Part shown: in pieces, positions 15,559 through 32,875 of the stretch
Numbering within the stretch: position 1 is the stretch's first letter
Layout: each line of letters opens with the position of its first letter
Assembly (NCBI GenBank): GCA_964461595.1
Contig: CAYWVB010000023.1
Location: 3,340 to 67,339, forward strand
Reading direction: 5' to 3'
Source: an uncultured Terrimonas sp.
GTDB lineage: Bacteria; Bacteroidota; Bacteroidia; Chitinophagales; Chitinophagaceae
Length of the DNA stretch: 64,000 nucleotides
Position numbers and translations under genes: made by a program
Notes under the pieces: model-generated
What the model was told of the DNA's origin: nothing
The model's input: the letters and a program-made list of their open reading frames with translations, nothing else
Database searches by the model: none

Positions 15559-16970
15559 TGAAGCGATATTGCTCAAAGATACTGCAGGCTCAGTCTGCAG
15601 TATCTTTTTTGTTTATGCTGTTTTCAGGGTGCAGTCCCTGCGATGGTATCAAACTGGTATCGGTAAGCGACAAGACGTCATCTAATAATGTATTGATCAA
15701 AAAAATGGATGTCATCTGCAATAAAAAAGCAGATATTTTCATACGATACAGGGAAAAAGGAGATACCACATCAACATATTCCACTTCCGTTTCTCCAGAC
15801 AAAAAAGAACATTTTTTTTCTTTGCTGTATCTTAAGCCTTCCAAAGCTTATGAGTATGAAATTGTATCCGTTCAAAAAGAATGCGGGAGTACTGTAATTG
15901 GTGCAGGAAAGTTTAAGACAAAAGAAGTGCCGCCAGGCATCCAGGAAATGATAATGCCGGCTGAAATACAGCCACCCCTGCCAGATAAATTTTTAAATGG
16001 TTTTGTACTGGTTGCGCGTCGTGACCTGCCGGGACAAATGTATATAATTGATGCAAAGGGGAATATTGTTTGGTATCATACCATTAGGGATGCCGGCTTT
16101 AAAGTAGCTCATTTTACAAAAAAAGGAACCATCTTATCTTTAGCAGCTCCGCTATCCTACCCTACCAGCTATGGCGACGAGATACTGGAAATTTCCCTTG
16201 CAGGAGATACGGTGTTCCATTTAAAAAAAGGAGAAAAAGGGCTGGATAAAACCATTCACCACGATATATTCTACAACTCATCTCAGCAATTGGTAACATT
16301 GACCCTTGAAAAAAAAGTGTTTGACCTCAGCAGTGTGGGCGGTGCAAAAACAGATACCATAACCGGGGATGGGATACTTGTACTGGACAATAAGGGCAAT
16401 AAGGTTTGGAGCTGGTCAGTATTTGATGTAATAAATCCGTTGACTGATCCTCATATTCTAAAAAATAAAGCTGACTGGCTTCATGCCAACAGCCTGAGCA
16501 TAGATACAGACGGCAATTATTTGCTGTCGTTCTATCTTTCAGGGCAGATATGGAAAATTGATGCAAAAACGGGAAAGCTGATCTGGAAGCTGGGACGTGG
16601 CGGCGATTTTACTTTCCCAAAAGCCGGTCAGTTTTCTGAATCTCATGCCGTACATCGGACATCAGACAACCAATTGATACTGTTTGAAAACGGTATCAGC
16701 AAAAAACAATCATCAGTATTGACATATACATTGGATGAAGCCGCCCGCAAAGCCACGTTAGATCTTTCTATTGTATTGCCAATAAACCTTTATAGCGAAA
16801 GAATGGGAAGCGCTTACCGGGTGGGAGATACCAGTATTTTGGTTTGTAGTTCGCAGGCCAATTCCGTGTCATTGCTGGGTAAAACCGGGGAAATACTATG
16901 GCGGATAAGAACCGGGTTTATCCCTTACCGGGCGGAATTTATTGACAGGCTCCCTTTAAGACCTGAATAA
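15549..16970 (+). CDS. Arylsulfotransferase (ASST)-family beta-propeller lipoprotein
   Basis: 473 aa with lipobox LFSGC. ASST-type blocks are KTIHHDIFY, DWLHANSLSIDTDGNYLLSF and SESHAVHRTSDNQLILFENG. Its start overlaps the SusD stop by 10 nt. Confidence 0.7.
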   Translation: MEIVKRYCSKILQAQSAVSFLFMLFSGCSPCDGIKLVSVSDKTSSNNVLIKKMDVICNKKADIFIRYREKGDTTSTYSTSVSPDKKEHFFSLLYLKPSKAYEYEIVSVQKECGSTVIGAGKFKTKEVPPGIQEMIMPAEIQPPLPDKFLNGFVLVARRDLPGQMYIIDAKGNIVWYHTIRDAGFKVAHFTKKGTILSLAAPLSYPTSYGDEILEISLAGDTVFHLKKGEKGLDKTIHHDIFYNSSQQLVTLTLEKKVFDLSSVGGAKTDTITGDGILVLDNKGNKVWSWSVFDVINPLTDPHILKNKADWLHANSLSIDTDGNYLLSFYLSGQIWKIDAKTGKLIWKLGRGGDFTFPKAGQFSESHAVHRTSDNQLILFENGISKKQSSVLTYTLDEAARKATLDLSIVLPINLYSERMGSAYRVGDTSILVCSSQANSVSLLGKTGEILWRIRTGFIPYRAEFIDRLPLRPE

Positions 16971-17007
16971 AAAAGCAGCCTGTATACAAAGCATTCTATA
17001 TATAGCC

Positions 17008-17038
17008 GGAAAAGCTGTCCGTAACAGGGCAGCTTTCC
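17008..17038 (+). terminator. Candidate intrinsic terminator hairpin after the ASST-like gene
   Basis: GGAAAAGCTGTCC-GTAACA-GGGCAGCTTTCC forms a stem of about 12 bp with one bulged A and one G-T pair. CCATTTAT follows it. It lies 38 nt after the stop at 16970. Confidence 0.45.
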
Positions 17039-17116
17039 CATTTATCCGGAGAGAACCAAAATGACAGGATAATACTGTAGCTTAACAGCGCGTATTGATC
17101 ACTTAATTACAGGAAT

Positions 17117-19522
17117 ATGAATAACAGAAAATGGGCAACGGCCCTGGTATTTATTTTATGCAGTCAGTGGATCCATGCTGTGGAGCTTAAAACAGCCTCC
17201 ACTGTTATTGTTATTAACGACAAAGGCTTCTACACTTCTATCAAAGTGGAAGGCCGGGAAATTATCGGCAAGGGAGCTTACCCGTTGATCTCGGCTGTGA
17301 AAGACGGGCAGATCGTGCTTCCCGTGGCATTAAAAGTAAGCGGCAGCAAATTCCTGTTGACGATGCAGGATAACCAGGTTATTGAGCTGTTGGTGCGGCA
17401 GCAGCAGCAAGCCATAACATACGAAGTCAGTAAGATCAGCAGCGTCTATAAAACGATCGTGTTTGGCCCGGTAAAAGTGGAGCCTCATGAAGTAGTAGGC
17501 GAAGTGGTGGGCGTGACCCAGGGCGGGAATATCGCTTTTGCCATGCAGGCGATGAATATAAAGACCAATGGCGGCATTCCGCAGGAATGCGCGCCGGACT
17601 ACGGTACCTTGTTCAATTATGCAGGCGGCAACACGGATCTTTCTGTTTCGAGCACGCCGTATTACAACTTTGCAGTGGCCGATACAAAAGATGGCGCCGT
17701 GTTCCAGTTGTCGGCCAGGAACCGCTCGCAGCAGGAGTACCGGAAGGTGAACCAGGTCGAAAAAGCGCTGGTGCTTCCGGTAAATGGCGCTGAAGGGAAT
17801 ATCGCCGGCGCTAAGATCGCGCTGTTTGGCGACCAACGCAGCCGGATACTAAACCGGATCGGCAGGGTAGAAACCGAGCAGGGACTGCCGCACCCCATCA
17901 TAGAAGGTGAATGGGGCAAAGAATCAAGAGGCGCTATGCGCTCTTACCTGATCACTAATTTTTCGGAAGATGACCTGGATTTTGTTGTAGAGAAAACCCA
18001 ACGTGCAGGATTCAGAACCCTGTATCACCCCGATCCGTTCAAGACCTGGGGGCATTTTGAGTGGGTCCCATCCCTGACTAAAACCGGGGACGATGGCATA
18101 AAAGCCCTTGTGGAAAGGGCTTCAAAAAAAGGAATAAAGATAGGCGTACATACCTTGTCAAATTTTTTAACAACAAACGATGCCTACGTGACGCCGGCAC
18201 CCGGCAAAAACCTCCTTAAGCAGGGTCAGCTAAGCCTTACAGGCAGTATGGATGATACGCAGACCACACTGGAAGTTGCGGCTTCCGGCCTGTTTGATGT
18301 GCCGCTTACATTAAATGCATTGCAGATCGGCAATGAGCTGATCACTTTTGGCAAGTTTGAAAAAAATGGCGACCGGGTTACGCTTACCGGTTGCACAAGG
18401 GGCGCATTCGGCACAAAAAAAGCAGCGCACGAAAAAAGCGAGCCGTTGTATAAATTATGGGATTACCCGTACCGTACCCTCTTCCCCGACATAGCATTGC
18501 AGGACGAATTTTCTCACCGCCTTGCGGAGATATTTAATAAAACCGGGTTGAAGCAAATTTCTTTTGACGGGCTGGAAGGCTGTATGTACACCGGGCAGGA
18601 TTATTATGCCACGGCGCGGTTTGTGACGGAGTATTACAACCGGCTTCAGAATAAAGCAGACCTTATCAATGATGCCAGCCGCCTGGATCATTATCTCTGG
18701 CATATCCATACACGGATGAACTGGGGAGAGCCCTGGGGCGAAGAAATGCGCAAAGGGCAGGTGGCCAGCCGGATAAAGAACCAGGATTATTTCAGGAGGA
18801 ACCTGTTCCCGCGGATGCTGGGATGGTTCCTGGTAAGACTGGCAGAGCGCAAGTTTGAAGCCACTTCCCTCGAAGACCTCGAATGGGCCCTGTCTGAGTC
18901 GGCCGGCTTTGATGCGGGGTATGCGATGAGCATCAGTATGAAAACATTGAAAAACCACGGGCAGATCAACCTGTTGCTGGATGCGATGAAGAACTGGGAT
19001 GAGCTGCGCTATGCCAACGTATTTACAGAGGATCAGAAAAAACGGCTGAAGGATCCGGAAACGGAATGGCACCTCGAAAAAAAGGATGATAAAAATTTCC
19101 TGCTATATCCCCTGTTCATTTCAGAGCGTTTCCGCTGCAATTTGTCGGAGATGCAGCCGGGGCAGCCGGGCGGGTCCGACTGGTCGTGGAAAAGCCCGGA
19201 GGAAGGCAGTTTTGCGCTGCGGATAAAAGTAGAAGGCGAAGGAGCTATTGCCAACCCTTCCTTTACCACGCCGCTGGGAGTGGTAAAGATCGAAGGGACG
19301 CTGCAGGCCAACCAGTACATCCTGCTCGATCACCAGGGAAAAGCTACCCTTACAGATCAAAATTATAATGTGCTGAAGGAACTGAACGTACAGGGGAAAG
19401 CCCTGTTGCCTAAAGGTGCATCAGGAGTATCATTTGCCTGCGAGCTCGCAGGGGATGACCGCCCTGATGTGGTAGTACGGTACCAGACAAGGATGACCCC
19501 CGAAAAGATAAGCAAGCCCTGA
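17117..19522 (+). CDS. Secreted protein of unassigned family (paralogue 1); putative novel PUL glycosidase
   Basis: 801 aa with a signal peptide (ALVFILCSQWIHA). I recognise no family. It is homologous along its full length to ORF 19854-22157; the shared blocks are listed in the findings. Confidence 0.6.
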   Translation: MNNRKWATALVFILCSQWIHAVELKTASTVIVINDKGFYTSIKVEGREIIGKGAYPLISAVKDGQIVLPVALKVSGSKFLLTMQDNQVIELLVRQQQQAITYEVSKISSVYKTIVFGPVKVEPHEVVGEVVGVTQGGNIAFAMQAMNIKTNGGIPQECAPDYGTLFNYAGGNTDLSVSSTPYYNFAVADTKDGAVFQLSARNRSQQEYRKVNQVEKALVLPVNGAEGNIAGAKIALFGDQRSRILNRIGRVETEQGLPHPIIEGEWGKESRGAMRSYLITNFSEDDLDFVVEKTQRAGFRTLYHPDPFKTWGHFEWVPSLTKTGDDGIKALVERASKKGIKIGVHTLSNFLTTNDAYVTPAPGKNLLKQGQLSLTGSMDDTQTTLEVAASGLFDVPLTLNALQIGNELITFGKFEKNGDRVTLTGCTRGAFGTKKAAHEKSEPLYKLWDYPYRTLFPDIALQDEFSHRLAEIFNKTGLKQISFDGLEGCMYTGQDYYATARFVTEYYNRLQNKADLINDASRLDHYLWHIHTRMNWGEPWGEEMRKGQVASRIKNQDYFRRNLFPRMLGWFLVRLAERKFEATSLEDLEWALSESAGFDAGYAMSISMKTLKNHGQINLLLDAMKNWDELRYANVFTEDQKKRLKDPETEWHLEKKDDKNFLLYPLFISERFRCNLSEMQPGQPGGSDWSWKSPEEGSFALRIKVEGEGAIANPSFTTPLGVVKIEGTLQANQYILLDHQGKATLTDQNYNVLKELNVQGKALLPKGASGVSFACELAGDDRPDVVVRYQTRMTPEKISKP

Positions 19523-19853
19523 TCCTGTATTGGCAAAAAAAACATTGGGTTTGGTCAATTTTATTGTTGTACTTAATGATCCTTTTAAGAATCTTTATGC
19601 CACCTTTTTCACGGGATTAACCGGCCAGCAGGGAGCGCGGGGTACAAGGCGGATACCAGAGCTGTTTGGCAATGATATTTGGGTAAGGGGCTCTGGGTTC
19701 GCGGCAGCGCATGATTATAATGATGAGATTTATTTTTTCGGTAATTATAACGGGAAGGTACCTAACCAAACGAAACCCCGAAGGGGTGGTATATATTAAC
19801 GATGGACACAGCCCATCGAATCAGGCGTAAGCCCATCAGATAAACATAAACTG

Positions 19854-22157
19854 ATGGAAGAACTAAAATCACATTATAATATGTATCAAAATCATTTGAA
19901 AAGAATATTGCTTTCAGGAGTACTGGCTTTCATGGTATTGCATCTTTGCGCCCAGTGGGATTTCAAGACCGATTATTTTAAGATCCACATCAATAACAAA
20001 GGCTTTATCACCAGCATGAAAAGCATTGCCGCTTTCCCCCACCGTGAGTTTAGCCCTGCAGGTAAACCCTCACCGTTGATGTTATTGTATGACGGGAATA
20101 AAAAGCAGTATTACCAGCCGGTTAAGGCATCTTATCAGAAAACAGGGAACCTGGTAATCCTCCGGTTTACGAACGGATCAGTGGCGCAGATACGCTTACA
20201 ACCACAAGCCAAATACCTGAAGCTCACATTGCTGTCACTCTCCAACAGGAAAGATATTGAAGACGTGCAGTGGGGAACGTATCATACCAATATCACCAAC
20301 CTGTTGGGCGAGATCATCGGCGTGGCGCGCGATACCAGCGAAGCAGTGAATTATGCCATCGGTATGCTGGCGCTGGACGATAATACGCTTAGCGGACTTT
20401 CATCCACCGTTGGCGATGCAGCGCCTTTCCAGTATATCATTCATACACCGGATGCAAAACGGTTTCCGTTGCCTGATTCATTGCATGAAGGACAGGTATT
20501 CAGCCTTGGCGGCAATGGCATCAGTGATGTGGCGTTTTATGCCCATAAGGAACCCTGGTACCGCATTATGTATGGCGATGCCGCACAGGTGGATGCCAAA
20601 GGGCGTATCTCCATTGCTTACCACTCAAGAAACCGCACCGGAAAAAGAGAGATCCTGTTTTCGCTTATACCGCACATGGCGGCAAACACGCCCAATCACA
20701 TAGAGGTGCAGCCCCTGCCCGGCGTGGATTATATAGGATCGTCCGTAGCGCTGTGGGGTAGCCCCGACAGCACGGCGCTCTTAGATGTGATTCAAAACAT
20801 TGTTTTGTCGGAAAAGCTGCCTTATCCTACCATCAATGGTAAATGGGTAAAAGACCCTGCCGCTTACGTGCCCGACCTGCTGACCAGCGGCGGTCTGTAC
20901 GACAGCAGCATTGCCTATGCAAAGCGGTTAGGATTTAAAGCGATCAGCCTGTACGACCAGGGATTTTTAAGACCCGACCGCGGCAACGGGGGATATATAG
21001 ACGGCATACACTTTGAGAATAAGCCCATAAAAATGACAGCCGGGAATAAATCGCAAAAAGAATTTTCTGAACTGGCTGCCAGGGAAGGAATTATCATCGG
21101 GCGCACACCCATCACCAATTCGCTGGCGCCCGGTACAAAGGATGCAAGCCCCGTTCCGAGCGACAGCCTCTGTTACCAGCAGAAACGTTTGCTGGCAAAA
21201 GGTATCAGCCCTGACGATACCATCATCATTGTAAATGACCCGAAACATCTGGAAGAGATCGCCAGTTGGGAAGGACATTGCGCCAGCCTGAACATGATAA
21301 AGATCGGTAAAGAACTTATTCACTATCTTGGCGTAGCTGACAAGCCCCCTTACCGTTTGCTGAACGTACAGCGCGGTTACTGGAAAACAGCTGCGGCGGC
21401 GCATAACGCCGGCGATACGGTTTACAAATTGCAGGTTACGGTCAATTATGGATATGACGGGATCATTCCCAATATGCAGTTGCAGGATGAAATTGCAAAA
21501 TGGTATGCCGCGGTTTGCAGCATCAACGGGCTGGCATATTATGATTTTGACGGGCAGGAGTTTTTATTCAATAACGGGCACGGCTACTACTCTGCCAAAC
21601 GGTTCTTCCATAAAATGTTTGACCATGCTAAACAACTGGGCGTGCCTTATATCCGGTTTACAGGAGCTACTTTATCAGAAGGCTCCTGGCATTATCAAAG
21701 CATCTGGAATGTAGGCGGCGGAAAAAATTTGTATGATGCGGATACCCGGGAATGGGGCAGCACTACCAGCCAGGGAAAAGACCTCCGGGATGTAACCTAT
21801 TCCAATTTTTTTCCTGTAGGCATGGGCGGCAATTTTCCCATTACCGCCAAATCAACTGCAGAGCAATACGAGCATATACAAGCTATTTCAGTTGGAGTGG
21901 GCACTACTTATAGTCTTCAGTTAAACCAGAAAGATGTGGAAAGCTGTCCGCAGAAAGAAGCCATTTTCAGCGTGATCCGCACCTGGGAAGATGCACGCGC
22001 CGCCAATGCTTTTCCCCGGCGCATTAAAATGCAGTTGGCAGACCCTCAAAGAAACTGGAGGTTAGAAGCGAAAGATGCCAATACCTGGGTGTTGTATGAA
22101 ATGATCAACGGCAGTAAGGTCAACCCGGTAACGCTAACAAGAGCGCCGGGATATTAA
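19854..22157 (+). CDS. Secreted protein of unassigned family (paralogue 2); putative novel PUL glycosidase
   Basis: 767 aa. The likely start is ATG 19881 (MYQNHLKRILLSGVLAFMVLHLCAQ signal). It aligns with ORF 17117-19522 from N- to C-terminus at low identity. Confidence 0.6.
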   Translation: MEELKSHYNMYQNHLKRILLSGVLAFMVLHLCAQWDFKTDYFKIHINNKGFITSMKSIAAFPHREFSPAGKPSPLMLLYDGNKKQYYQPVKASYQKTGNLVILRFTNGSVAQIRLQPQAKYLKLTLLSLSNRKDIEDVQWGTYHTNITNLLGEIIGVARDTSEAVNYAIGMLALDDNTLSGLSSTVGDAAPFQYIIHTPDAKRFPLPDSLHEGQVFSLGGNGISDVAFYAHKEPWYRIMYGDAAQVDAKGRISIAYHSRNRTGKREILFSLIPHMAANTPNHIEVQPLPGVDYIGSSVALWGSPDSTALLDVIQNIVLSEKLPYPTINGKWVKDPAAYVPDLLTSGGLYDSSIAYAKRLGFKAISLYDQGFLRPDRGNGGYIDGIHFENKPIKMTAGNKSQKEFSELAAREGIIIGRTPITNSLAPGTKDASPVPSDSLCYQQKRLLAKGISPDDTIIIVNDPKHLEEIASWEGHCASLNMIKIGKELIHYLGVADKPPYRLLNVQRGYWKTAAAAHNAGDTVYKLQVTVNYGYDGIIPNMQLQDEIAKWYAAVCSINGLAYYDFDGQEFLFNNGHGYYSAKRFFHKMFDHAKQLGVPYIRFTGATLSEGSWHYQSIWNVGGGKNLYDADTREWGSTTSQGKDLRDVTYSNFFPVGMGGNFPITAKSTAEQYEHIQAISVGVGTTYSLQLNQKDVESCPQKEAIFSVIRTWEDARAANAFPRRIKMQLADPQRNWRLEAKDANTWVLYEMINGSKVNPVTLTRAPGY

Positions 22158-22241: not shown

Positions 22242-22985
22242 CTAATTTTCCCTTCTGCTTTCAATAATATATACAAAGCTGTCGGCCCTGTAAAAGCCTA
22301 AATTGTATTCCGTCGGGCGCTCCACCTGGTCGTAAACGAATCGTTTCCTGAATAAAACAGGGCTGCCAACGTCAAGCTGCAATTTGCCGGCTAAAAATTT
22401 GTCGGCTGCCCGGGCGCTGATCTCTTCCTTGGAAAGATTGGCAATGACCTGGTGATCTTTTTCCAGGATTTCATACAGGGGACGCTTGAAATCTTCTTCG
22501 CCTGTAAGCCCGATCCGCGGATGGAAATACGAAACAAAGTAAACGAACGGGCCTTCTGGTCTTCCTCTTAAGCGTTCTAACTTTAATACTTTTTTGTTGG
22601 CATTGATTTCAAAAAAATTAGCAATGCTTTCTTCCGGCTTTACCCAGCTTAAGCTGAGTTCAAAATTTTTGATGGGTATGCCCCGTATCGCCATTTCCTG
22701 CGAAAAGCTCAGCCAGTTCAGCGCTTTAGAGCTAACCATATTGTTCACCTTGGTGCCAATGCCCTTTTTGCGTACCAGCAGCCCTTCATACACGAGCTTA
22801 TTAATGGCCTGCCGTAAAGTGCCTCTCGATATGTTCAGCTTATGGGCAAGCTCAATTTCGTTGGGCAGGTGCTTACCCTTCTGGTACTGGGGTTGTTTTG
22901 CTATTTTTCTAAGGAGCTCTTCCGCCTGTACATGCAGGGGAATAGGACTCTTGTGGTCAATTGAAAAACTCATACGTATTAACAA
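22242..22985 (-). CDS. GntR-family transcriptional regulator, HutC subfamily (wHTH + UTRA)
   Basis: 247 aa. The N-terminal wHTH is LPNEIELAHKLNISRGTLRQAINKLVYEGLLVRKKGIGTKV. The C-terminal UTRA-like part is FSQEMAIRGIPIKNFELS...LKLERLRGRPEGPFVYFVSYF...YRADSFVY. Confidence 0.88.
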   Translation of the reverse strand: MLIRMSFSIDHKSPIPLHVQAEELLRKIAKQPQYQKGKHLPNEIELAHKLNISRGTLRQAINKLVYEGLLVRKKGIGTKVNNMVSSKALNWLSFSQEMAIRGIPIKNFELSLSWVKPEESIANFFEINANKKVLKLERLRGRPEGPFVYFVSYFHPRIGLTGEEDFKRPLYEILEKDHQVIANLSKEEISARAADKFLAGKLQLDVGSPVLFRKRFVYDQVERPTEYNLGFYRADSFVYIIESRREN

Positions 22986-23028
22986 AGGTACGATATTACT
23001 TTTTCCGGCACATTCAGGAACAATTAAA

Positions 23029-23536
23029 GGCTAATTAATATTTTGAGGTGCCCGGATGTTGCCTTTTAGCCCGGAGGGCTGGAACATGAATAGCCCCCAA
23101 CGCAGTAGGGAGTAACCGATTCGAGCCGAAACAGCCCCGCTTGCGGGGTTGAATGTCAGAAACGAATGGCAGGATAGCTATGGCGCTTTCACGTATTCGG
23201 TAAGAGAAAAAGATACCATCATTAACTATATTAAGAATCAAAAAGATCATCACACAAAAGAAACATTCTATGACGAATTCAAAGACTGCTTATAGAAAAT
23301 GGTGTGGAATTCAATGAAAAACACCTGCGCTGAACTGCTTCATTCCACCCTTTCAGGGTTGTGTTGTTTGTGTATCCTTTACTCTGAGTTGCACCCAGGG
23401 CGATGCACATTTAGTCCGCCACCGCCAGAATGACTTCGTCGGGCAGGCGTGCCGGTACGCCTGCCTGAACTGCCGAACGGCAGGCAGGGACGGGCCCTCC
23501 GGGCTTTTCCCCGGCACCTCAAAATATTAATTAGCC
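23029..23536. mobile_element. 508-bp cassette bounded by perfect 24-bp terminal inverted repeats (MITE-like / REP-like), carrying a transposase stump
   Basis: GGCTAATTAATATTTTGAGGTGCC at 23029-23052 is the exact reverse complement of 23513-23536. A second inverted pair is AGCCCGGAGGGC at 23068-23079 and GCCCTCCGGGCT at 23494-23505. The flanking 8-mers are CAATTAAA (23021-23028) and CAATTACA (23537-23544), which match at 7 of 8 positions. Confidence 0.6.
23164..23333 (+). pseudogene. C-terminal remnant of an IS200/IS605-type (Y1, RayT-like) transposase, 5'-truncated and frameshifted
   Basis: The translation is EWQDSYGAFTYSVREKDTIINYIKNQKDHHTKETFYDEFKDCL-stop. It continues in the -1 frame as LLIENGVEFNEKHLR-stop. 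The W-Q-x-x-Y-G-A-F...Y-I-x-N-Q-x-x-H-H pattern is the conserved C-terminal part of Y1 transposases. No N-terminal HUH part is present. Confidence 0.6.
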
Positions 23537-23568
23537 CAATTACACTGACCGAAAAAAAAAATGGGTAT

Positions 23569-23593
23569 AATGTATATATGTATATACATTTGA
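23569..23593 (+). promoter_or_regulatory. Candidate promoter plus operator: 8-2-8 palindrome TGTATATA-TG-TATATACA overlapping a -7 box TACATTTG
   Basis: AATGTATATATGTATATACATTTGA is identical to 41357-41381. The core GTATATAC (23580-23587) fits the HutC-type GTnTAnAC pattern. TACATTTG (23585-23592) fits the Bacteroidota -7 consensus TAnnTTTG. It lies 59 nt upstream of the GH38-like ATG. Confidence 0.5.
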
Positions 23594-23651: not shown

Positions 23652-26327
23652 ATGAAGCGCATAATCCTCTTCCTTTTTCTTATTGCATGTACGGCAACAG
23701 CCGCGTATACCCAGTTGAATAAAAACAAGCCGGTAAACCCCAAAGTAACCGATATATGGGTGGTGTTTAAAACACATTTTGATTTAGGCTTTACCGATCT
23801 GCCTGAAAATGTTTTTAAACGCTACCGGGAAGAAATGATGGATAATGCCCTGAAAGTAATGGAGCACAGTGAAACACTGCCGAAGGAGAAGCGTTTTGCC
23901 TGGACGGTTCCCGGGTGGCCGTTAGAGGCTCAGATACTGGGGCCACTGCAAACGCCCGAACGGAAGGCAAGGATCGGGAAAGCCATCCGGAACGGAACGC
24001 TGGCCGTACATGCGCTGCCCTTTACAACACATACCGAGTCGCTCGATTATGAAGACCTGGTGCGCGGGCTGGGCTATTCTTCGGCGGTGGCAAGGAAGTA
24101 CGGCCAGCCGTTGCCCATTAGTGCAAAGATGACAGATGTGCCCGGCCACTCATGGATCATGCCTACCCTGCTAAATCATGCAGGCGTCCGGTTCTTGCAA
24201 TTAGGCTGTAACCCCGCAAGCCAGTACCCGCGTTTTCCCGAACTGTTCTGGTGGGAAGGCGCCGATGGCTCAAAAATATTATGCAATTACACGGCTTTAT
24301 ATGGTTCTGATATCCGGCCAACCCCTGGTTGGCCCTGTAAGAATTACCTGGCCATGCAAATGACCGGCGACAATCACGGGCCACCCACAGCCGGGGAGAT
24401 TGATAAGCTGCTGGCTTATGCGGCAAAAGAATTACCGGGTATAAAAATTCATTTTGGCACGCTGGATGATTTTGCGAAAGCCATATTTGCAGAAAACCCT
24501 TCGTTGCCTACGGTAAAAGGTGATTGCCCGGATACCTGGATACAGGGCCTGCAATCCAACCCGCAGGAAACAAAGCTGGCAAGGGATATCCGCCCTATGG
24601 AACCGGCACTGGACGGATTGCATACACAATTAAAAGCCTGGGGAGCGCCTGTAGCACCAATTGCCGGAAAGCTGGACAAAGCTTATGAGCAAAGTTTATT
24701 GTATGCCGAACATACCTGGGGCATGAATGCGGAATATGGCCCCCGTTACAGCTATGGAGATGCCTGGAAAAAATGGATGGATGAAGCGGCAGCTGAACCA
24801 CTGCCGGAGAACAACAATTATGCTGCGCTGAAAAACAGCGATGCCCACAATACTTCAACCGGGAGCAAACGGAAATGGCTTCGTTCTTACGAAGATAAGC
24901 GGCAATACATCCGCAACACAAACGAAATCGTAAGCACAACGCTGCACAGTGAGCTGGATATACTGGCCGCATCGGTTAACAAGCAGGGAAAACGGGTGGT
25001 TGTATATAACCCGTTGCCCTGGAAAAGATCGGGCATGATAGAAAACCCGCTGGAGAAAGGTACCTTTTTTTATGCAGCGGACATAGCACCATCAGGCTAC
25101 AGCACCTATACTGCCGATGCATTGCAGCAGGGCGGCGCCAGCAGCGATGAACAACCCGTTTTCAGTACGCCTTATTATAAAGTTATTTTCGATTTAACCA
25201 AAGGGGGTATCGCATCCTTAATGGAAAGATCAACCGGCAGAGAACTCGTGGATACCGCATCGGGCTATACGCTGGGGCAATTTATGCACGAGCGCTTCAG
25301 CTCTAACGAAGTGGATACATGGTTCAATGCGTATAGCCGCATCAAAGACGGCTGGGGACTTAACGACCTGGGAAAACCCGGAATGCCCAAGGCAGATATT
25401 GTACCATATCTGGCATTTACGCCCCGGTCATGGAAGATAAGCGTTACCCATTCCGCTATGGCTGATATAGCTGTATTGACGGCCGTTACTACAGGTGGGT
25501 TTGCGAAGGGTTACACTTTAACCTTTACGTTTCCCCGTAAAGCGCCTTATGTAGATGTGGAGTGGATGGTGGACACCAAAACCGCCGACAAACAACCGGA
25601 AGGCGGCTGGCTTTGTTTTCCGTTCAAAGTGGAACAACCTACATTTACGATTGGCCGTTTAGGTGGCCCCGTCAATCCGGCAAAAGATATTATCGCAGGG
25701 ACCAACCGGTACTTAATGGCCGTAAATACAGGGGTAGCCGTTACGCAGGCCGATCACTCCGGCATGGCCATTACGCCAATTGATGCACCGTTGGTAAGCC
25801 TCGGTGTGCCCGGCCTGTGGAAATTTGATATGGACTATGTGCCCACCATACCATCCGTATTTGTGAACCTGTACAATAATATGTGGAATACAAATTTTCC
25901 TTTATGGCAGGATGGGTCGTGGAGCGAACGGGTGCGTGTGTGGCCCGTGCCTAAAGGTTCTCAGCCAGTTTCAAACCTGGTGCAAAATGCCTGGGAAGCG
26001 CGTTTGCCCTTATTAACAGGCGTGGCAGAAGGAGAAGCCGGGAAATTACCTGCCGCAAGAGCCGGTATTTCCATTTCCCGGAAAAATGTTTTGATCACAG
26101 CCTTTGGCGATAACCCCTACGGGAAAGGAACGATCCTCCGCCTGTGGGAGCAGGCAGGCGTTTCGGGCAAATGCACGGTGCAATTTACAACGGGCATAAA
26201 TGTGAAAGCCGTTGTACCCATTGATCTGAGAGGAACGGCTATTGGTAAAAAAATAACTGTGACCAACAACGCTTTTTCTTTTAACCTGGATAAATATACT
26301 CCGGCATCGTTCCTGCTTATTTATTAA
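23652..26327 (+). CDS. GH38-like alpha-mannosidase
   Basis: 891 aa with a signal peptide. VVFKTHFDLGFTD carries an HxD metal motif. MTDVPGHSW is the D..GH nucleophile region, as in the GH38 N-domain. The size and the GH92 context fit. Confidence 0.65.
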   Translation: MKRIILFLFLIACTATAAYTQLNKNKPVNPKVTDIWVVFKTHFDLGFTDLPENVFKRYREEMMDNALKVMEHSETLPKEKRFAWTVPGWPLEAQILGPLQTPERKARIGKAIRNGTLAVHALPFTTHTESLDYEDLVRGLGYSSAVARKYGQPLPISAKMTDVPGHSWIMPTLLNHAGVRFLQLGCNPASQYPRFPELFWWEGADGSKILCNYTALYGSDIRPTPGWPCKNYLAMQMTGDNHGPPTAGEIDKLLAYAAKELPGIKIHFGTLDDFAKAIFAENPSLPTVKGDCPDTWIQGLQSNPQETKLARDIRPMEPALDGLHTQLKAWGAPVAPIAGKLDKAYEQSLLYAEHTWGMNAEYGPRYSYGDAWKKWMDEAAAEPLPENNNYAALKNSDAHNTSTGSKRKWLRSYEDKRQYIRNTNEIVSTTLHSELDILAASVNKQGKRVVVYNPLPWKRSGMIENPLEKGTFFYAADIAPSGYSTYTADALQQGGASSDEQPVFSTPYYKVIFDLTKGGIASLMERSTGRELVDTASGYTLGQFMHERFSSNEVDTWFNAYSRIKDGWGLNDLGKPGMPKADIVPYLAFTPRSWKISVTHSAMADIAVLTAVTTGGFAKGYTLTFTFPRKAPYVDVEWMVDTKTADKQPEGGWLCFPFKVEQPTFTIGRLGGPVNPAKDIIAGTNRYLMAVNTGVAVTQADHSGMAITPIDAPLVSLGVPGLWKFDMDYVPTIPSVFVNLYNNMWNTNFPLWQDGSWSERVRVWPVPKGSQPVSNLVQNAWEARLPLLTGVAEGEAGKLPAARAGISISRKNVLITAFGDNPYGKGTILRLWEQAGVSGKCTVQFTTGINVKAVVPIDLRGTAIGKKITVTNNAFSFNLDKYTPASFLLIY

Positions 26328-26347
26328 TAGTACATAAAAATGCTTGT

Positions 26348-28702
26348 ATGAATAAAAACCGGGAATCTTTACATCGGGCGCTTTTATTGCTGGCATTGAG
26401 CGTAGTTGTTTTTTGCAAACCATCTGCCGCGCAAAAAGATTTTACACAATATGTAGATCCGGCTATTGGCACAGCCCATTGCCGGTGGTTTCATTATACA
26501 CCCGGAGCGCTTCCGTTTGGCATGGCCAAGCCTGCCCCATCCACTAATGGCAGCTATGGCAATGCCAGCGGTTGGGAAGCTACAGGCTACGATTACAGGC
26601 ATACTTCTATTGAAGGATTCCCCAATTTTCACGAGTTCCAGATCGGGGGGATTGTATTTGCCCCCATTACAGGTGCCTTGCAAACCACCCCCGGAAAATT
26701 GGAATCGCCGGAAAGCGGCTACCGGTCGCGCTTCGACCGTAAAAACGAGATCAGCACAGCCGGCTATTATTCCGTTTTGCTGAGCGACTATAATATCCGC
26801 GCTGAACTGACCGCCACAAAAAGGGTGGCTTTTCACCGATACACTTTCCCCGCCACAAAACAGGCGCATATTTTATTCGATATTGGTAACCAGCAGGGCG
26901 AAAGCGGGCCGGTACAGGATGCCAAAGTATATCTGTTGCCCGATGGCAGGGTGGAAGGCTGGGTAACCACCTTGCCGGCGTATGTTCAAAAATACCAGCC
27001 CGGTGCCACCGTTACTATGTATTTTTCAGCGGTTGTCAGTAAAAAATATACCGCCTGCGGCGCTTTCAATGGTAATGCTATCCGGGAAGGCGCAAAAGAA
27101 GCCAGCGGCAAAGGCGCCGGTTTGTATCTCAGCTTTATAACGGAGGATAAGGGATCTATTACTGTTAAAGCAGGACTGTCTTACACCTCTGTTGGAAACG
27201 CCAGGAAAAATTTAGAAGAAGAATCTTCGGGGCTGACCTTCGATCAGGCAAGGGTGCAGTCTAAAAAAATATGGAACGAATACCTGGGAAGAATAGAAGT
27301 GGAAGGAAAAAACAAAGCTGATAAGGTGAAGTTTTATACCGGGCTTTATCATGCCCTGCTGGGCAGAGGGCTTGCCAGTGATGTAAACGGCGCTTATCCC
27401 AAAAATGACGGCACCACAGGGCAAATTCCGCTGAGCAAAAACGGGAAGCCGTTGCACGCGCATTATAATACCGATGCGGCCTGGGGCATTTACTGGAACC
27501 TGGCGCAGCTTTGGGCGCTGGCTTATCCCGAATATTACTCAGACTTTATCAAAAGCCAGTTGCTGGTATATAAGGACGCCGGCTGGCTGGGTGACGGAAT
27601 AGCCGCCAGCCGTTATGTTTCGGGAGTGGGTACCAATTTTGTAGGACTTGTTTTTGCCGGCGCTTATGAGGCGGGCATCCGGGATTTTGACGTGAACCTG
27701 GCTTATGAGGCTGCATTGAAGAACGAGCTGGAATGGAAAGACCGCCCGTTTGGTGCAGGAAAAATGGATGTGGACAGGTTCCGCAAATATGGATATGTAA
27801 ACCATTTGGATAGCGGCAAAGGCGGCAGCGAGCTATGGCAGTTTTCTGTTTCGCATACCCTGGAATATTCATTCAGCACCTATGCCATAGCACAATGGGC
27901 GCAACAGCTCGGCAAAAAAAAGGATTATGAAGAACTGCTCCCTCTGTCGAAGGCATGGGAAAAAGTATATGACCCGGCGTTAAAACTTGTAAGACCCCGG
28001 CTGGCCAATGGTGAGTTTGTGGATCCTTTTGATCCTTCCCAGCCCTGGCGGGGATTCCAGGAGGGCAATGCCTGGCAATACACGTATTTTGTTCCGCACG
28101 ATATTGAAGCATTAGTGAAAAAAATGGGAAAGCAAACCTTTAACCAGCGCCTCGACAGCATCTTCACCATTGCTGAAAAAGCCTTGTTTGGCGGCGGCTC
28201 CAATATTGATGCCTTTGCCGGAATAGCCGGCGTTTATAACCACGGCAACCAGCCCAACCTGCATGTTTCCTGGCTGTTTAATTTTTCCGGCAAATCATCG
28301 CTTACCCAAAAATGGGTGCGGGCTATTTGTAACCAGTTTTATGGTACCGAAGGCATACACGGCTATGGTTATGGCCAGGATGAAGACCAGGGACAGCTTG
28401 GAGCCTGGTATGTACTGTCGTCCATCGGTTTGTTTGATATAAAAGGATTGACCAGCACAGATCCGCAGATGGGCATCGGCAGCCCCTTATTCGATAAAAT
28501 AAAAATCAGGCTCAATCAAAAATATTATACCGGGAAAGCGTTCACCATTGAAACCAAAAATAACAATGATGAAAATATATATGTGCAGTCAATGTTTTTG
28601 AATGGGCAGCCGTTGCATTCACCTTTTATTGCCTGGAAGCAGGTTACAAAAGGAGGAAAGCTCAGTTTGCAAATGGGCCGCACACCTAAAGATATTTATT
28701 AG
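26348..28702 (+). CDS. GH92 alpha-mannosidase
   Basis: 784 aa with a signal peptide. GH92 landmarks are QYVDPAIGTAHCRW, GNQPNLHVSWLFNF and QDEDQGQLGAWYVLSSIGLF. Confidence 0.92.
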   Translation: MNKNRESLHRALLLLALSVVVFCKPSAAQKDFTQYVDPAIGTAHCRWFHYTPGALPFGMAKPAPSTNGSYGNASGWEATGYDYRHTSIEGFPNFHEFQIGGIVFAPITGALQTTPGKLESPESGYRSRFDRKNEISTAGYYSVLLSDYNIRAELTATKRVAFHRYTFPATKQAHILFDIGNQQGESGPVQDAKVYLLPDGRVEGWVTTLPAYVQKYQPGATVTMYFSAVVSKKYTACGAFNGNAIREGAKEASGKGAGLYLSFITEDKGSITVKAGLSYTSVGNARKNLEEESSGLTFDQARVQSKKIWNEYLGRIEVEGKNKADKVKFYTGLYHALLGRGLASDVNGAYPKNDGTTGQIPLSKNGKPLHAHYNTDAAWGIYWNLAQLWALAYPEYYSDFIKSQLLVYKDAGWLGDGIAASRYVSGVGTNFVGLVFAGAYEAGIRDFDVNLAYEAALKNELEWKDRPFGAGKMDVDRFRKYGYVNHLDSGKGGSELWQFSVSHTLEYSFSTYAIAQWAQQLGKKKDYEELLPLSKAWEKVYDPALKLVRPRLANGEFVDPFDPSQPWRGFQEGNAWQYTYFVPHDIEALVKKMGKQTFNQRLDSIFTIAEKALFGGGSNIDAFAGIAGVYNHGNQPNLHVSWLFNFSGKSSLTQKWVRAICNQFYGTEGIHGYGYGQDEDQGQLGAWYVLSSIGLFDIKGLTSTDPQMGIGSPLFDKIKIRLNQKYYTGKAFTIETKNNNDENIYVQSMFLNGQPLHSPFIAWKQVTKGGKLSLQMGRTPKDIY

Positions 28703-28760
28703 GCACCTGTGCACATTGCTATAAAATGTTTAAGAAATCATTCATTCAAACGGTACAAAG

Positions 28761-31532
28761 ATGTTTAAAAAATTGCTCTTCATTTTGTTGTTGCATTGCT
28801 GTTGTTTTTGCATATATGCCGGCCCCGGCAGCATTGCCAATAAGGCAACGGTGACCGCTTCTTCTGAAAATACGGAAAAAGGAAAAGCCGCCAACGTGGT
28901 GGATGGCATTATCCGCATAGATGGTAAAGGAGAATGGGTATCAAAAAGTACGGTTACTTTTTGGGGGCAGATTGACTATCCCTGGATACAATTGGATTGG
29001 CAGCAGCCGCAGTCCATCAACAAAATTATTGTGTACGACCGCGTTTCAGATGCTTCGCACAATGCAGGCGGTATCTTGATCTTCAGCAATGGCGCCCGCA
29101 TTCCCGTGCTGCAGATACCCAACAACGGTGCGGCTAAAGTGATCAGCTTCCCTGAACAAACCGTCAGTTGGGTACGCTTTGAAACCACCGATGCCAATGG
29201 CCCTGCGATAGGATTATCGGAAATAGAAGTATATCCCTCTCCTGCGCAGATCACTGATCCTGTTTCCTGGGTGGATCCTTATATTGAAACCACACGCGGC
29301 CGCTATTTTTACTTCGCCACAGGCAGCCAGCCCTTTGGTATGATCAGCGCGGCGCCGCTTACCCGCAACAAAAACCAGTACGGCGGCGGCTACAATTACA
29401 ATTCAACCGAAATACTTGGTTTTCCCCAGATACATTGCTGGATGATGTCGGGCATATCCCTGATGCCCGTAACCGGGAATATAGCCCTGCATAAAGGCGA
29501 GCAGGAATGGAAATCAGGATTTTCGCACGATGGCGAAATTGTGCAGCCGGGATATCACCGGCTTTACTTAGACAAGTATGATACCTGGGTAGAGCAAACT
29601 GCCGCCGACCGCATCAGCTTCTACCGCTTTACTTATACCAAAGATGCGCTGGCTAATGTATTGGTAAGCCTGGGCGGTTACCTGGGCGAGGCTACGATGA
29701 ATGATGCACGGGTAGAAAAATTGAGCAATACACGCATCGCAGGTTCTGTAAATACAACGGGACGGCTTTGGGGCGGGCCTGAAAATGTCCGCATCTACTT
29801 TGTGATTGATTTTGAAAAACCATTTGAACAATTAAATGGGTGGAGCGATAAGGAAGAGATGTTCAACATCACTGCATTAACCGGCAGCGCCGGAAAAACA
29901 GCAAGGAACAGCGGTTCAATGAGCTATTACGATGCTCCTGCAGCAGGCGTGGCCGCGCAATACCAGGTGAAGGCGGGCGATAAAATACAAATGAAAGTAG
30001 CGGTTTCTTATACCAGCATTGATAATGCAAAGCGGAATCTTGAATCGGAAAACAGCAGCTGGAATTTTGATGAGCATCGAACAGCTTCGCAAAACGAATG
30101 GAACGAAATGCTGGGGCGCATTGCTGTAAAAGGCGGAAGCGGCAATCAAAAAATAAAATTCTATACCGATCTCTGGCATGTACTGCTGGGGCGGCATAAG
30201 CTGGATGATGTGTCCGGCGACTATCCCGATAATACCGAAGGCGAGCGGCGCGGAAGTTTTACTATTAACACAAAATTCAAAGTAAGAACATTACCCAAAG
30301 ACCAAAATGGCAAAGCAAAATTTCACATGTACAATTCGGATGCATTTTGGCTGACACAATGGAACCTGAACATCCTGTGGGGCCTGGCCTGGCCCGAAGT
30401 GCTGGATGATTTTGCCGCCTCCTTAATTCAGTACGCCGAAAATGGAAAGCTGCTTCCGAGAGGTCCCTGCGGCGGCGGGTATTCTTATATCATGACAGGA
30501 TGCCCTGCTACCAACCTCATTACCTGCGCCTATCAGAAGGGGTTGCTTACTAAAAAACCGGCAGCCATAGCTTACGAAATGATGAAGCAAAACCATGCGC
30601 CGGGCGGCATGATGGGTGGAAAAGAAGAAATGGAATTTTACATTAAAAACGGATATTATCCTTCTAATGCAGGCATCAGTCTGGAGATTGCTTTCCAGGA
30701 TTGGGCGCTGGCGCAAATGGCGCAAAAATTAGGGAAGAAAAAAGATTACGAATACTTCCTGCATCGCTCGCAGGGATGGACAAAGCTATACAACCCGGAG
30801 CAAAAGCTGATTTTCCCCAAAGACAAAGAAGGGAACTGGCTGCATCGTGATGCCCTCAGCGGACATGGATGGGTGGAAGCCAATGCCTGGCAGGCTACCT
30901 GGTCGGTATCGCAGGGCATACCGCAATTGGCAAAGATGATGGGAGGCAATGACACGCTTTGCAAAATGCTCAACTTTGCATTTGAGCAGGCCAAAGACCA
31001 GGATTTTGTTTTTGGCTATGGTGCAGGATATGTTAGCTATGCCAACCAGCCCGGCTGCTCCAATGCGCATGTATTCAATTATGCCGGCCGCCCCGATCTG
31101 ACCCAGTATTGGGTGCGCAGGGTAAACGAGCAGGCTTATGGCGCCGTTACGCCCGACAAAGGTTATGGCGGGCACGATGAAGACCAGGGACAAATGGGCG
31201 GTGTAAGCGCACTAACCTCTATCGGGTTATTTAGTTTAACCGGCACCTGTTCTATCAACCCGGAGTATGATATTACCAGCCCGGTGTTTGATGAAGTAGT
31301 GATAAAACTCAATAACAACTATTATACTGGAAAAGAATTTGTGATTAAAACTTACAATAACTCCAAAGCAAATTGTTACATACAAAAAGCTGCGTTAAAC
31401 GGAGCGGCATATAATAAATTCAGTTTTTCGCATAGCGATTTTGCTAAAGGCGGTGTGCTTGAATTATGGATGGGGGCAGCGCCGGATTATTCCTGGGGCA
31501 AGGCATCCCCAACCGCTGGGGAGAAACAGTAA
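28761..31532 (+). CDS. GH92 alpha-mannosidase with N-terminal discoidin (F5/8 type C, CBM32-like) domain
   Basis: 923 aa. The N-terminal ~150 aa read ATVTASSENTEKGKAANVVDG...PWIQLDWQQPQSINKIIVYDR...IGLSEIEVY. The GH92 blocks WVDPYIETTRGRYF, ANQPGCSNAHVFNY and HDEDQGQMGGVSALTSIGLF follow. Confidence 0.9.
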   Translation: MFKKLLFILLLHCCCFCIYAGPGSIANKATVTASSENTEKGKAANVVDGIIRIDGKGEWVSKSTVTFWGQIDYPWIQLDWQQPQSINKIIVYDRVSDASHNAGGILIFSNGARIPVLQIPNNGAAKVISFPEQTVSWVRFETTDANGPAIGLSEIEVYPSPAQITDPVSWVDPYIETTRGRYFYFATGSQPFGMISAAPLTRNKNQYGGGYNYNSTEILGFPQIHCWMMSGISLMPVTGNIALHKGEQEWKSGFSHDGEIVQPGYHRLYLDKYDTWVEQTAADRISFYRFTYTKDALANVLVSLGGYLGEATMNDARVEKLSNTRIAGSVNTTGRLWGGPENVRIYFVIDFEKPFEQLNGWSDKEEMFNITALTGSAGKTARNSGSMSYYDAPAAGVAAQYQVKAGDKIQMKVAVSYTSIDNAKRNLESENSSWNFDEHRTASQNEWNEMLGRIAVKGGSGNQKIKFYTDLWHVLLGRHKLDDVSGDYPDNTEGERRGSFTINTKFKVRTLPKDQNGKAKFHMYNSDAFWLTQWNLNILWGLAWPEVLDDFAASLIQYAENGKLLPRGPCGGGYSYIMTGCPATNLITCAYQKGLLTKKPAAIAYEMMKQNHAPGGMMGGKEEMEFYIKNGYYPSNAGISLEIAFQDWALAQMAQKLGKKKDYEYFLHRSQGWTKLYNPEQKLIFPKDKEGNWLHRDALSGHGWVEANAWQATWSVSQGIPQLAKMMGGNDTLCKMLNFAFEQAKDQDFVFGYGAGYVSYANQPGCSNAHVFNYAGRPDLTQYWVRRVNEQAYGAVTPDKGYGGHDEDQGQMGGVSALTSIGLFSLTGTCSINPEYDITSPVFDEVVIKLNNNYYTGKEFVIKTYNNSKANCYIQKAALNGAAYNKFSFSHSDFAKGGVLELWMGAAPDYSWGKASPTAGEKQ

Positions 31533-31585
31533 TACCTAAAAGTTTTAAATGATCAGCTATAAATTATTTACTAATACTTATAAAA

Positions 31586-32875
31586 ATGAAAAGGTACTAT
31601 TCACTGTTGCTATTGCTGTTTCCTGCCTTTATAGCTGCCGCACAGGTAAAAATAACGGACAATAAAATACTTGGTGAAAAAATAAAGAACGATCCATATT
31701 TCCCCTTTGTAAAAGAGAAAGCGCTGGAAGTAATGAAAACAGGCTTTAATGCCGGCGACGGTTACCGCGAAGTGTGGATACGGGATTACAACACTTTTAT
31801 AGAACTGGCTGCACAGGTATATCCAAAAGAAGTATTGAAAGAAAACCTGCTGGTGTTTTTTCGCCTGCAGGGCGATGACGGCAATATCATAGACGGGTTT
31901 ACACCCGCAGCAAAAGCTGGTGATGAAATAGGTTATAACTATTCTCATTCCAAACTGGAACCCCGTTATGCAGGGCATAAAAACACGGTGGAAACCGACC
32001 AGGAGACATCACTGGTGCAGGCCGTGTACAAATACATTCAACTGACAGGCGATAAAATAATTTTAGCTGAAAAGATTGGTGACAAAACCGTGAGCGAAAG
32101 ATTGGAATGGGCCATGGATTTTTTGATGAAGCACCGGTTTAACCAAAAATACGGCCTGATCACCGGCGCCACTACAGCCGATTGGGGAGATGTGCAGCCG
32201 GAGCATAGCTGGGGAGTAGCGCTTGACAGCAATACGCACTGGGCCATTGATGTGTATGACAATGCCATGTTTGTTGTTGCGCTGAATAATCTAATGGAAA
32301 TAATTCCTTCCGCAAAGCGGAAGTGGGGCAACGTAAAAGACAGCATAACTAAAAATGTGAGGATGCATCTCTGGGATAAGAAGCAACAAAAATTCATTCC
32401 GCATATCTACCTGAACGGATCGCCGTTTCCCGCCGATTTTGATGAAAACAACATTTATTATTTTGGTGGAACAGCCGTTGCAATTGAAGCCGGCCTGCTC
32501 AGCAAAAAAGAAATTAAGGTTTCCCTTGATGAAATGATCAAGCGGGTGAAGCTCGCCGGTGCCGCTTCTATCGGGCTTACCTTATACCCTGCTTATCCCG
32601 AAGGCTATTTTGAAAACAAAGGCATGGGCCCTTATTCTTACCAGAACGGTGGCGACTGGACATGGTTTGGAGCAAGAATGATCCAACAGCTGATCAGATA
32701 CGGATTTGCAGCCGAGGCGTATGAACAAATACAGCCCATGGTGAAGCGCGTAAAAGATAACAACGGCTTTTATGAATGGTACTCTGTAGACAACAAGCCG
32801 CGTGGCTCGGGCACTTTCAGAGGGGAAGCAGGTGTTTTATATACCGCTATTGTGATGCTGGAAAATCTGAAGTAG
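31586..32875 (+). CDS. Secreted six-hairpin (alpha/alpha)6-barrel glycosidase-like protein, family unassigned (GDE_C/GH100/GH63-like motifs)
   Basis: 429 aa with a signal peptide. Its blocks are EVWIRDYNTF, NTVETDQETSLVQAVYKYIQLTGD, GATTADWGDVQ, WAIDVYDNAMFVVALNNL and YQNGGDWTWFGARMIQQL. These follow the pattern of six-hairpin glycosidases. It lacks the GH125 and GH76 signature motifs that I remember. Confidence 0.55.
   Translation: MKRYYSLLLLLFPAFIAAAQVKITDNKILGEKIKNDPYFPFVKEKALEVMKTGFNAGDGYREVWIRDYNTFIELAAQVYPKEVLKENLLVFFRLQGDDGNIIDGFTPAAKAGDEIGYNYSHSKLEPRYAGHKNTVETDQETSLVQAVYKYIQLTGDKIILAEKIGDKTVSERLEWAMDFLMKHRFNQKYGLITGATTADWGDVQPEHSWGVALDSNTHWAIDVYDNAMFVVALNNLMEIIPSAKRKWGNVKDSITKNVRMHLWDKKQQKFIPHIYLNGSPFPADFDENNIYYFGGTAVAIEAGLLSKKEIKVSLDEMIKRVKLAGAASIGLTLYPAYPEGYFENKGMGPYSYQNGGDWTWFGARMIQQLIRYGFAAEAYEQIQPMVKRVKDNNGFYEWYSVDNKPRGSGTFRGEAGVLYTAIVMLENLK

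Follow-up and report, generated by a model that had tools for sequence, protein, structure and literature searches.

A predicted operator of a HutC-subfamily GntR regulator shared by two separate mannoside loci in Terrimonas

How might a bacterium bring two physically separate mannoside loci under common control? The question is raised by a 64,000-nucleotide (nt) stretch of DNA from an uncultured Terrimonas sp. (Chitinophagaceae; assembly GCA_964461595.1, contig CAYWVB010000023.1, positions 3,340 to 67,339), referred to here in its full length as the window. In this 64-kb window one 25-nt sequence, AATGTATATATGTATATACATTTGA, occurs in two exact + strand copies, at 23569–23593 and at 41357–41381. 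The initial annotation had pointed out the identity of the two copies, and a scan of the window bears this out. Copy 1 ends 58 nt short of the ATG at 23652 of a GH38-like/DUF5054 gene, and copy 2 ends 90 nt short of the ATG at 41472 of a SusC-type gene; counted to the start codon itself, the distances are +59 and +91, in agreement with the 59 and 91 nt reported initially for the GH38-like/GH92 operon and for SusC. The window holds no third copy with up to three mismatches, and 100 dinucleotide-preserving shuffles hold none. With two exact copies against zero expected in the shuffles, chance is excluded. The similarity between the copies stops at 25 nt, and their flanks are unrelated. We propose, with a probability of roughly 80%, that the adjacent HutC-subfamily GntR regulator uses the 25-mer as its operator, to which a Bacteroidota -7 promoter element is fused, and that the system is the Chitinophagaceae counterpart of the ManR regulon of Bacteroides. 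The proposal is built on comparisons of sequence, which are set out below.

The regulator gene, ManR-like and of the HutC subfamily by Pfam and orthologue alignment, occupies 22242–22973 on the - strand. Its open reading frame extends from 22242 to 22985; judged from the orthologues, the true start is the ATG at 22973, which gives a protein of 243 residues. The N-terminus carries a GntR winged helix-turn-helix (wHTH) domain (PF00392, E 1.9e-13, residues 21–80) and the C-terminus a UTRA domain (PF07702, E 6e-26, residues 110–237), the combination that defines the HutC subfamily. Thus the initial call of a HutC-type GntR gene divergent from copy 1 holds, with a shifted start. The protein also aligns over its full length to NagR/YvoA of Bacillus subtilis and to DasR of Streptomyces (E 1e-20 to 1e-24; structures 4U0V, 4WWC and 4ZS8).

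If the 25-mer is the operator of this protein, it should accompany the regulator gene in other genomes. Seven orthologous loci were obtained by exact-protein look-up and 80 by a scan of a genome collection, leaving 83 after removal of duplicates. In these 83 non-redundant loci, which belong to the Chitinophagaceae and Sphingobacteriaceae and include the genera Chitinophaga, Terrimonas, Niastella, Flavihumibacter, Agriterribacter, Pedobacter and Mucilaginibacter, the regulator, of 243 residues in the orthologues too, is 72–90% identical to the window protein, an unusually high level of conservation. Among the seven look-up loci, the recurring neighbours of the regulator gene are GH92, GH38-like, a ROK-domain protein of about 890 residues, a Sugar_tr transporter and SusC/SusD. 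The ROK-domain protein is a ROK kinase fused to a module resembling mannose-6-phosphate isomerase (PMI), hereafter ROK-PMI. The intergenic region between the regulator and the divergent GH92/GH38 operon of C. lutea and C. eiseniae contains TCAAATGTATATACATAT(G/A)TACATAT, which differs at one or two positions from the reverse complement of the window 25-mer, and related sites lie upstream of the ROK-PMI gene.

The pattern is general. Within 300 nt upstream of the regulator gene, ATGT-N4-ACAT-N4-ACAT is present with no mismatch in 34 of the 83 loci and with at most one mismatch in 45, compared with 5 and 9, respectively, of 820 control windows of 300 nt from the same loci; several of these control matches are genuine extra sites. 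An enumeration free of prior assumption, which covered all palindromes with half-sites of 4 and 5 nt and spacers of 0–6 nt, returned ATGT-N4-ACAT as the commonest palindrome, found in 53 of the 83 loci.

A position weight matrix was trained solely on the regulator-upstream sites of other genomes, with the window left out; its consensus is wATGTAYRwACATAtnwACATa. When applied to the window, the matrix gives 30.8 bits to site 1 and 30.4 bits to site 2, and the third-best position reaches 7.4 bits. At 46614, between SusD and the gene after it, there is a weak 12-mer match; it received no score from the matrix and was set aside. Outside the training regions, 78 sites score at least 14 bits, whereas block-wise dinucleotide shuffles yield 2.7; at 22 bits or more the numbers are 52 and none. 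Nearly all of the matrix sites are intergenic and precede genes for the regulator, GH92, GH38-like, a 429-residue GH94-like protein, ROK-PMI, PMI-like proteins, SASA esterase, SusC, FG-GAP/ASPIC proteins and sugar transporters. The motif thus accompanies the regulator gene in two families, and this footprinting strongly supports the initial suggestion that one regulator would couple two separate mannoside loci.

What does the regulator probably recognize within the 25-mer? The conserved unit is a 12-base-pair (bp) palindrome, ATGTA-NN-TACAT, of which the family-wide form is ATGT-N4-ACAT, with GT and AC 4 nt apart. In the window the palindrome is ATGTATATACAT and its GT-N4-AC core is GTATATAC, which has HutC-operator geometry and fits the published HutC consensus NyGTMTAKACNy, where GT and AC are likewise 4 nt apart (PMC4494728). 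The match to a HutC pattern claimed at the outset is therefore sound. The element also lies at promoters and is conserved across regulator-bearing genomes, as a HutC-type operator should be. The central TA is present in the window palindrome but is not kept in other genera, for example GTACAAAC. The 8-2-8 inverted repeat described initially is real; it is in fact a 10-2-10 repeat, AATGTATATA-TG-TATATACATT, but not the conserved unit. It arises from ATAT/TATA spacers and is absent from Pedobacter/Mucilaginibacter-type sites (ATGTACAAACATATAAACAT). As a functional unit the repeat, 8-2-8 or 10-2-10, was rejected, for it is not kept outside Chitinophaga-type sites.

To one side of the palindrome is a third half-site, 4 nt past the palindrome and 12 nt from its centre. 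Many GntR operators have weaker extra half-sites 7–12 nt from the centre (PMC4494728). To gauge how common this arrangement is, 141 unique ATGT-N4-ACAT palindromes were picked on the palindrome alone. An extra ACAT, or the mirrored ATGT, stands on exactly one side in 66 of them and on both sides in one, where 1–2% would be expected. The one-sided third half-site is real. Operator 1 (23569–23593, + strand; identified by exact-copy search, matrix score and alignment) thus has a core 20-mer at 23570–23589, ATGT ATAT ATGT ATAT ACAT, consisting of the extra half-site ATGT at 23570–23573 and the palindrome at 23578–23589. In operator 2 (41357–41381, + strand), the core 20-mer is at 41358–41377 and the palindrome at 41366–41377.

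Each operator also contains a promoter-like element. The octamer TACATTTG, a match to the Bacteroidota -7 consensus TAnnTTTG, overlaps the palindrome in both copies, as was noted initially, at 23585–23592 in operator 1 and at 41373–41380 in operator 2. Such overlap is widespread: TAnnTTTG coincides with 75 of 117 strong sites (64%), compared with 84 of 3360 random positions. The Chitinophaga-type sites have TACATTTG as this box, placed at the end of the palindrome, and its CAAA is invariant in the site-1 alignment. In Pedobacter-type sites the operator itself forms the box, TATGTTTG.

Site 1 offers TACATTTG as its single -7 candidate and lacks a clear -33 TTTG. Site 2 is more elaborate. A candidate SusC promoter at 41324–41354 on the + strand, directly upstream of operator 2, has a -33 TTTG at 41324–41327 and a second TACATTTG as its -7 box at 41347–41354, with a spacing of 19 nt. 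In seven aligned SusC-upstream regions, TAYATTTG is invariant at the position of 41347–41354; the TTTGA tail of the 25-mer is not kept. Conservation in the orthologues singles out this upstream box, and operator 2 therefore probably lies over the point where transcription begins, not over the -7 box. The initial statement that a bound dimer would occlude the promoter thus fits site 1, which overlaps the -7 box, and needs amendment for site 2, which probably lies over the start site; repression would still be expected there. On the other side of operator 2, a leftward TAnnTTTG adjoins it at 41383–41390 and reads CAAATATA on the + strand (TATATTTG). Promoter elements of divergent genes, two or three in number, may therefore flank site 2 or coincide with it.

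These features suggest the following model. A regulator dimer would bind the 12-bp palindrome ATGTATATACAT, and the third half-site ATGT, 4 nt upstream, would probably recruit or stabilize a further subunit. For the GH38-like/GH92 operon, the palindrome of site 1 is predicted to overlap the -7 box TACATTTG. For the SusC/SusD-GH38-transporter-isomerase operon, that of site 2 would cover the -7 box, the transcription start or both, beside the leftward -7 box of the FG-GAP/PAP2 genes. The bound protein would block RNA polymerase by steric exclusion, until a mannose-derived effector at the UTRA domain freed it and both loci were induced together. We infer physical binding, the repressive sign and the stoichiometry; repression is predicted from the operator-over-promoter geometries. 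As to the effector, the content of the regulon prompts the guess that it is mannose or mannose-6-phosphate.

The sign of control deserves scrutiny, since the regulator could activate here, or both activate and repress, instead of being a simple repressor. A promoter such as that of site 1, with no good -33 TTTG, could need help, and the orientation of the site and its distance to the gene differ among loci. But 64% of the strong sites lie over the -7 box, or at the transcription start, of the gene downstream, which is incompatible with classical activation. Characterized HutC proteins, among them NagR and DasR, repress until an effector releases them, and so does AusR, a regulator of a Bacteroidota polysaccharide utilization locus (PUL). 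Activation is thus improbable, although it is the alternative that survives best.

Slightly less likely still is that the motif is the site of some other factor, for instance a global carbon regulator or the AraC protein encoded at 55405, and that the GntR protein binds elsewhere. In favour of this idea, the co-occurrence of GntR gene and motif is correlative. Against it, the motif follows the GntR gene, whatever regulators are nearby, across two families and beyond. That is, Bacteroidia relatives whose regulators are 45–52% identical keep a recognizable TGT-N4-ACA-N4-ACA site (L215, 10771–10790, and L214, about 9892–9914). In Acetobacteroides ('Alistipes sp. ZOR0009'), TTGTTTAAACATGTAAACAA scores 17.7 bits directly after the regulator gene, which is co-oriented in an operon of the order GntR-MFS-GH92-GH94-like-PMI-like. 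In Prolixibacter, a 17.1-bit site lies 100 nt upstream of the regulator, with no mannoside genes nearby. The GT-N4-AC geometry is, moreover, typical of HutC proteins; a global factor fits poorly with a narrow regulon of mannoside and mannose genes only, and no AraC gene stands beside the sites in other loci. The other-regulator reading was accordingly rejected.

Very unlikely is the proposal that the two copies lack a regulatory role and stem from recent duplication or gene conversion of a piece of promoter, or represent a small dispersed repeat. The 25-nt identity does take in the TTTGA tail that site-2 orthologues lack, and the sequence class is frequent in microsatellite DNA elsewhere. Yet the window has only two copies, with dissimilar flanks, and in other genera each of them is matched by positional orthologues of its own, which makes both sites old. 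For site 1, CAAATGTATATACAT is invariant in nine orthologous intergenic regions from six genera, the flanks of which are unalignable. For site 2, orthologues upstream of SusC are found in Agriterribacter, Terrimonas, Chitinophaga and other Chitinophagaceae loci, the half-sites and the upstream TAYATTTG being kept in seven aligned cases. The order FG-GAP/ASPIC-site-SusC, which is that of window site 2, is kept in eight loci (L018, L020–L022, L024, L026, L029 and L034). Conservation upstream of orthologous operons thus extends to both window sites. In addition, the sites are almost never intragenic and are always near the same gene families. Local conversion of the site-2 tail is possible, yet would not remove function. 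The dispersed-repeat reading was rejected.

Equally remote, and rejected, is a role in RNA, i.e., a 5'-leader hairpin that attenuates or stabilizes the transcript: the 10-2-10 repeat could fold and part of site 2 may be transcribed, but other genera keep only the 4-nt half-sites, with spacers that vary without compensation (ATGTACAAACATATAAACAT) so that no stable hairpin is conserved, and at site 1 transcription would leave the element out, given its position over the -7 box and upstream of it.

Several observations nevertheless weigh against the assignment of the 25-mer to the GntR regulator as its operator. First, in 21 of the 83 loci, about a quarter, for example those of the Agriterribacter type, the best site upstream of the regulator gene has at least three mismatches. 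Autoregulation is therefore not universal. Second, the motif is of low complexity, being made of TA/CA steps, so that its sequence alone is unspecific outside the lineage. Third, a 508-bp insertion has shifted site 1 away from the regulator's own promoter in the window. Fourth, there are two TACATTTG boxes at site 2, either of which could be the -7 element. Finally, a different factor co-inherited with the locus would be compatible with the correlative co-occurrence described above.

The effect of low complexity was evident in an exact scan of metagenomes with the family consensus ATGTAYAWACATATAWACAT. It returned 120 stretches (L088–L207), 117 of them in TA/CA microsatellite-like DNA of unrelated content. 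The only matches with unique flanks were L105, L166 and L200, each beside regulon genes. As a survey of the regulon the scan was uninformative, its matches being mostly microsatellite-like, and it was discarded.

The insertion, at 23029–23536, lies between the regulator promoter and operator 1. The likely -7 box of the regulator's own promoter is TAATATCG (TAATATTG in orthologues) at 22991–22998 on the - strand, about 18 nt before the ATG. A string aaaaaGTAATATTG is kept some 20–30 nt before the regulator ATG in most orthologous loci (about 9965–9980 there), and strings of this type are probably the -7 box of the regulator gene. The 508-bp element is bounded by 27-nt terminal inverted repeats, GGCTAATTAATATTTTGAGGTGCCCGG, and holds the C-terminal remnant of an IS200-like Y1 transposase (Y1_Tnp, 21.2 bits, last 28 positions of the profile). 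It occurs once in the window and in six of six contigs of the same species (L208–L213), and is absent from the orthologous intergenic regions of other genera. With the insertion, the gap between regulator and operator 1 is 596 nt (22974–23568), versus about 100 nt in relatives. We speculate that the insertion may have weakened autoregulation in the window lineage.

Two further arrangements concern the regulator's own gene. In the Agriterribacter/Terrimonas-type loci L018, L020–L022, L024 and L026, no operator precedes the regulator, and one strong site alone is present, some 4.6 kb distant in the gap between FG-GAP/ASPIC and SusC; this group seems either to have lost autoregulation or never to have acquired it. 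Terrimonas pollutisoli (L010 and L012) has two regulator paralogues, each with an operator about 112 nt upstream; their identity to the window protein is 90% and 87%. Cross-talk between these paralogues is possible.

Which genes does the regulator probably control? The calls of the initial annotation, i.e., GntR, GH38-like/GH92, SusC and an extracytoplasmic function (ECF) sigma/anti-sigma pair, are right by Pfam. Target unit 1 extends from 23652 to 36106 on the + strand and encodes, by Pfam, the GH38-like/DUF5054 protein, GH92, GH92 with F5/8C, a 429-residue protein, and GH92 with a CBM-like domain. The 429-residue protein has a GH94-like match in an orthologue. Shared strand and short gaps suggest that the unit is an operon. 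Target unit 2 extends from 41472 to 55029 on the + strand; by Pfam and NCBIfam it encodes SusC without an STN domain (start 41472), SusD (start 44595), a GDE_C-like protein, a GH38-like protein, PhyH, a major facilitator superfamily (MFS) sugar transporter, and a 575-residue protein resembling mannose-6-phosphate isomerase. These genes form a presumptive operon of the same extent. A sigma-70 promoter and terminator scan of the window was at shuffle level; the sigma-70 model is not applicable here, and the scan was not used for operon borders.

The 575-residue protein (53302–55029) is 36% identical to the C-terminal PMI-like part of the relatives' ROK-PMI fusion, and proteins of 591 residues beside the regulator in Mucilaginibacter and Pedobacter are likewise related to that module. 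The window has the PMI-like gene and lacks a ROK kinase. Because the conserved set of GH92, GH38-like and transporter genes includes ROK-PMI/PMI-like modules, the regulon genes of the window are predicted to serve the breakdown of alpha-mannosides together with the uptake and conversion of mannose. A possible divergent target, at 36341–41292 on the - strand, comprises genes for an FG-GAP/ASPIC protein (37681–41292) and a PAP2 protein (36341–37666), which may also be under operator 2 control, given the leftward box that adjoins it.

A separate cluster at 8482–22157 encodes an ECF sigma factor (8482), FecR (9169), SusC with an STN domain, and SusD. The initial annotation had reasoned that the GntR protein would add a second layer of control to this PUL. 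The matrix scan of the window places no ManR-type site near 8482–22157, and in relatives the GH38/GH92 operon adjoins the regulator in loci that have no ECF PUL; the second-layer idea is therefore unsupported. The PUL of target unit 2, by contrast, lacks both an STN domain and a dedicated sensor, and the GntR protein may hence be its main specific regulator. The part of the ECF-sigma PUL between 15549 and 22157 encodes an arylsulfotransferase-like (ASST) beta-propeller protein and two proteins, of 801 and 767 residues, with no Pfam or NCBIfam match. A third cluster, at 55405–63301, consists of an AraC regulator, an MFS transporter, a xylose-isomerase-like TIM barrel protein and SusC/SusD; no ManR-type site is present in this cluster, which seems to be a locus in its own right.

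The closest known counterpart is ManR (BT2103), a GntR-family regulator proposed for Bacteroides thetaiotaomicron on the basis of comparative genomics (Ravcheev et al. 2013, PMC3878776; RegPrecise). The regulon predicted for it includes pmi-manK (a PMI/ROK kinase fusion), GH92 genes, a mannose transporter, SusC/SusD and a GH38 mannosidase (PMC3878776). Compared by gene content and regulator family, the ManR regulon has the same gene content as the one described here for the window and the 83 loci, and relatives of the window regulator adjoin genes for the ROK-PMI fusion, a sugar transporter, GH92 and GH38. The host differs (Bacteroides, as opposed to soil Chitinophagaceae and Sphingobacteriaceae), the ManR transporter is FucP-type whereas a Sugar_tr MFS protein is found here, and the window is without a ROK kinase. 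ManR itself seems never to have been tested experimentally, and no other paper mentioning BT2103 was found in the collection of literature searched.

NagR/YvoA and DasR share with the window regulator the wHTH and UTRA architecture and a palindromic operator with GT and AC 4 nt apart. By analogy with them, repression by the window regulator would be relieved by a sugar or sugar phosphate. Their regulons concern N-acetylglucosamine and chitin rather than mannosides, and the operators here are distinguished by the one-sided, obligatory-looking third half-site and the Bacteroidota -7/-33 context. The core of dre is of the GGTCTAGACC type, whereas the half-sites here are ATGTA..TACAT.

The GntR repressor AusR of the alginate PUL of Zobellia galactanivorans has been demonstrated experimentally (Dudek et al. 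2020, PMC7641319). One to three AusR operators lie over the -7 box TAnnTTTG, the regulon includes distant loci, and control of its own gene is weaker (PMC7641319). The likeness to the window system is in the operators over the -7 box and the multi-locus regulon. In contrast, AusR is of the FadR subfamily, recognizes TKGT-N2-3-ACMA and serves alginate use, whereas HutC (UTRA) features, GT-N4-AC and mannosides or mannose are found here. The UTRA domain and the 4-nt spacing place the window regulator outside the AusR subfamily.

A broader proposal may be put forward tentatively, and we hold it to be rather doubtful as a whole. The three-half-site operator would imply asymmetric binding by this HutC regulator, or binding in a form larger than a simple dimer, and the spacer would have co-evolved to serve also as the -7 box (TACATTTG in the Chitinophaga type, TATGTTTG in the Pedobacter type). 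The master switch of alpha-mannoside PULs across several Bacteroidota orders would then be a single cytoplasmic one-component repressor, not a hybrid two-component or ECF system, and the first HutC-type PUL regulator would have been defined.

GntR/HutC repressors with palindromic operators over promoters are textbook. The kind of gene control described here is an ordinary bacterial one, already predicted for gut Bacteroides, and changes no concept. It would extend the ManR prediction from gut Bacteroides to other orders, and the operator of about 20 bp, with its position weight matrix, would be usable for annotation and for inducible promoters. The proposed system also indicates how a sensor-less SusC/SusD locus can be linked to a distant glycosidase operon by one cytoplasmic repressor. 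For the soil Chitinophagaceae and Sphingobacteriaceae, in which PUL regulation has hardly been studied, it would provide a precise regulon for the use of alpha-mannosides and mannose, from fungal mannan or high-mannose glycans.

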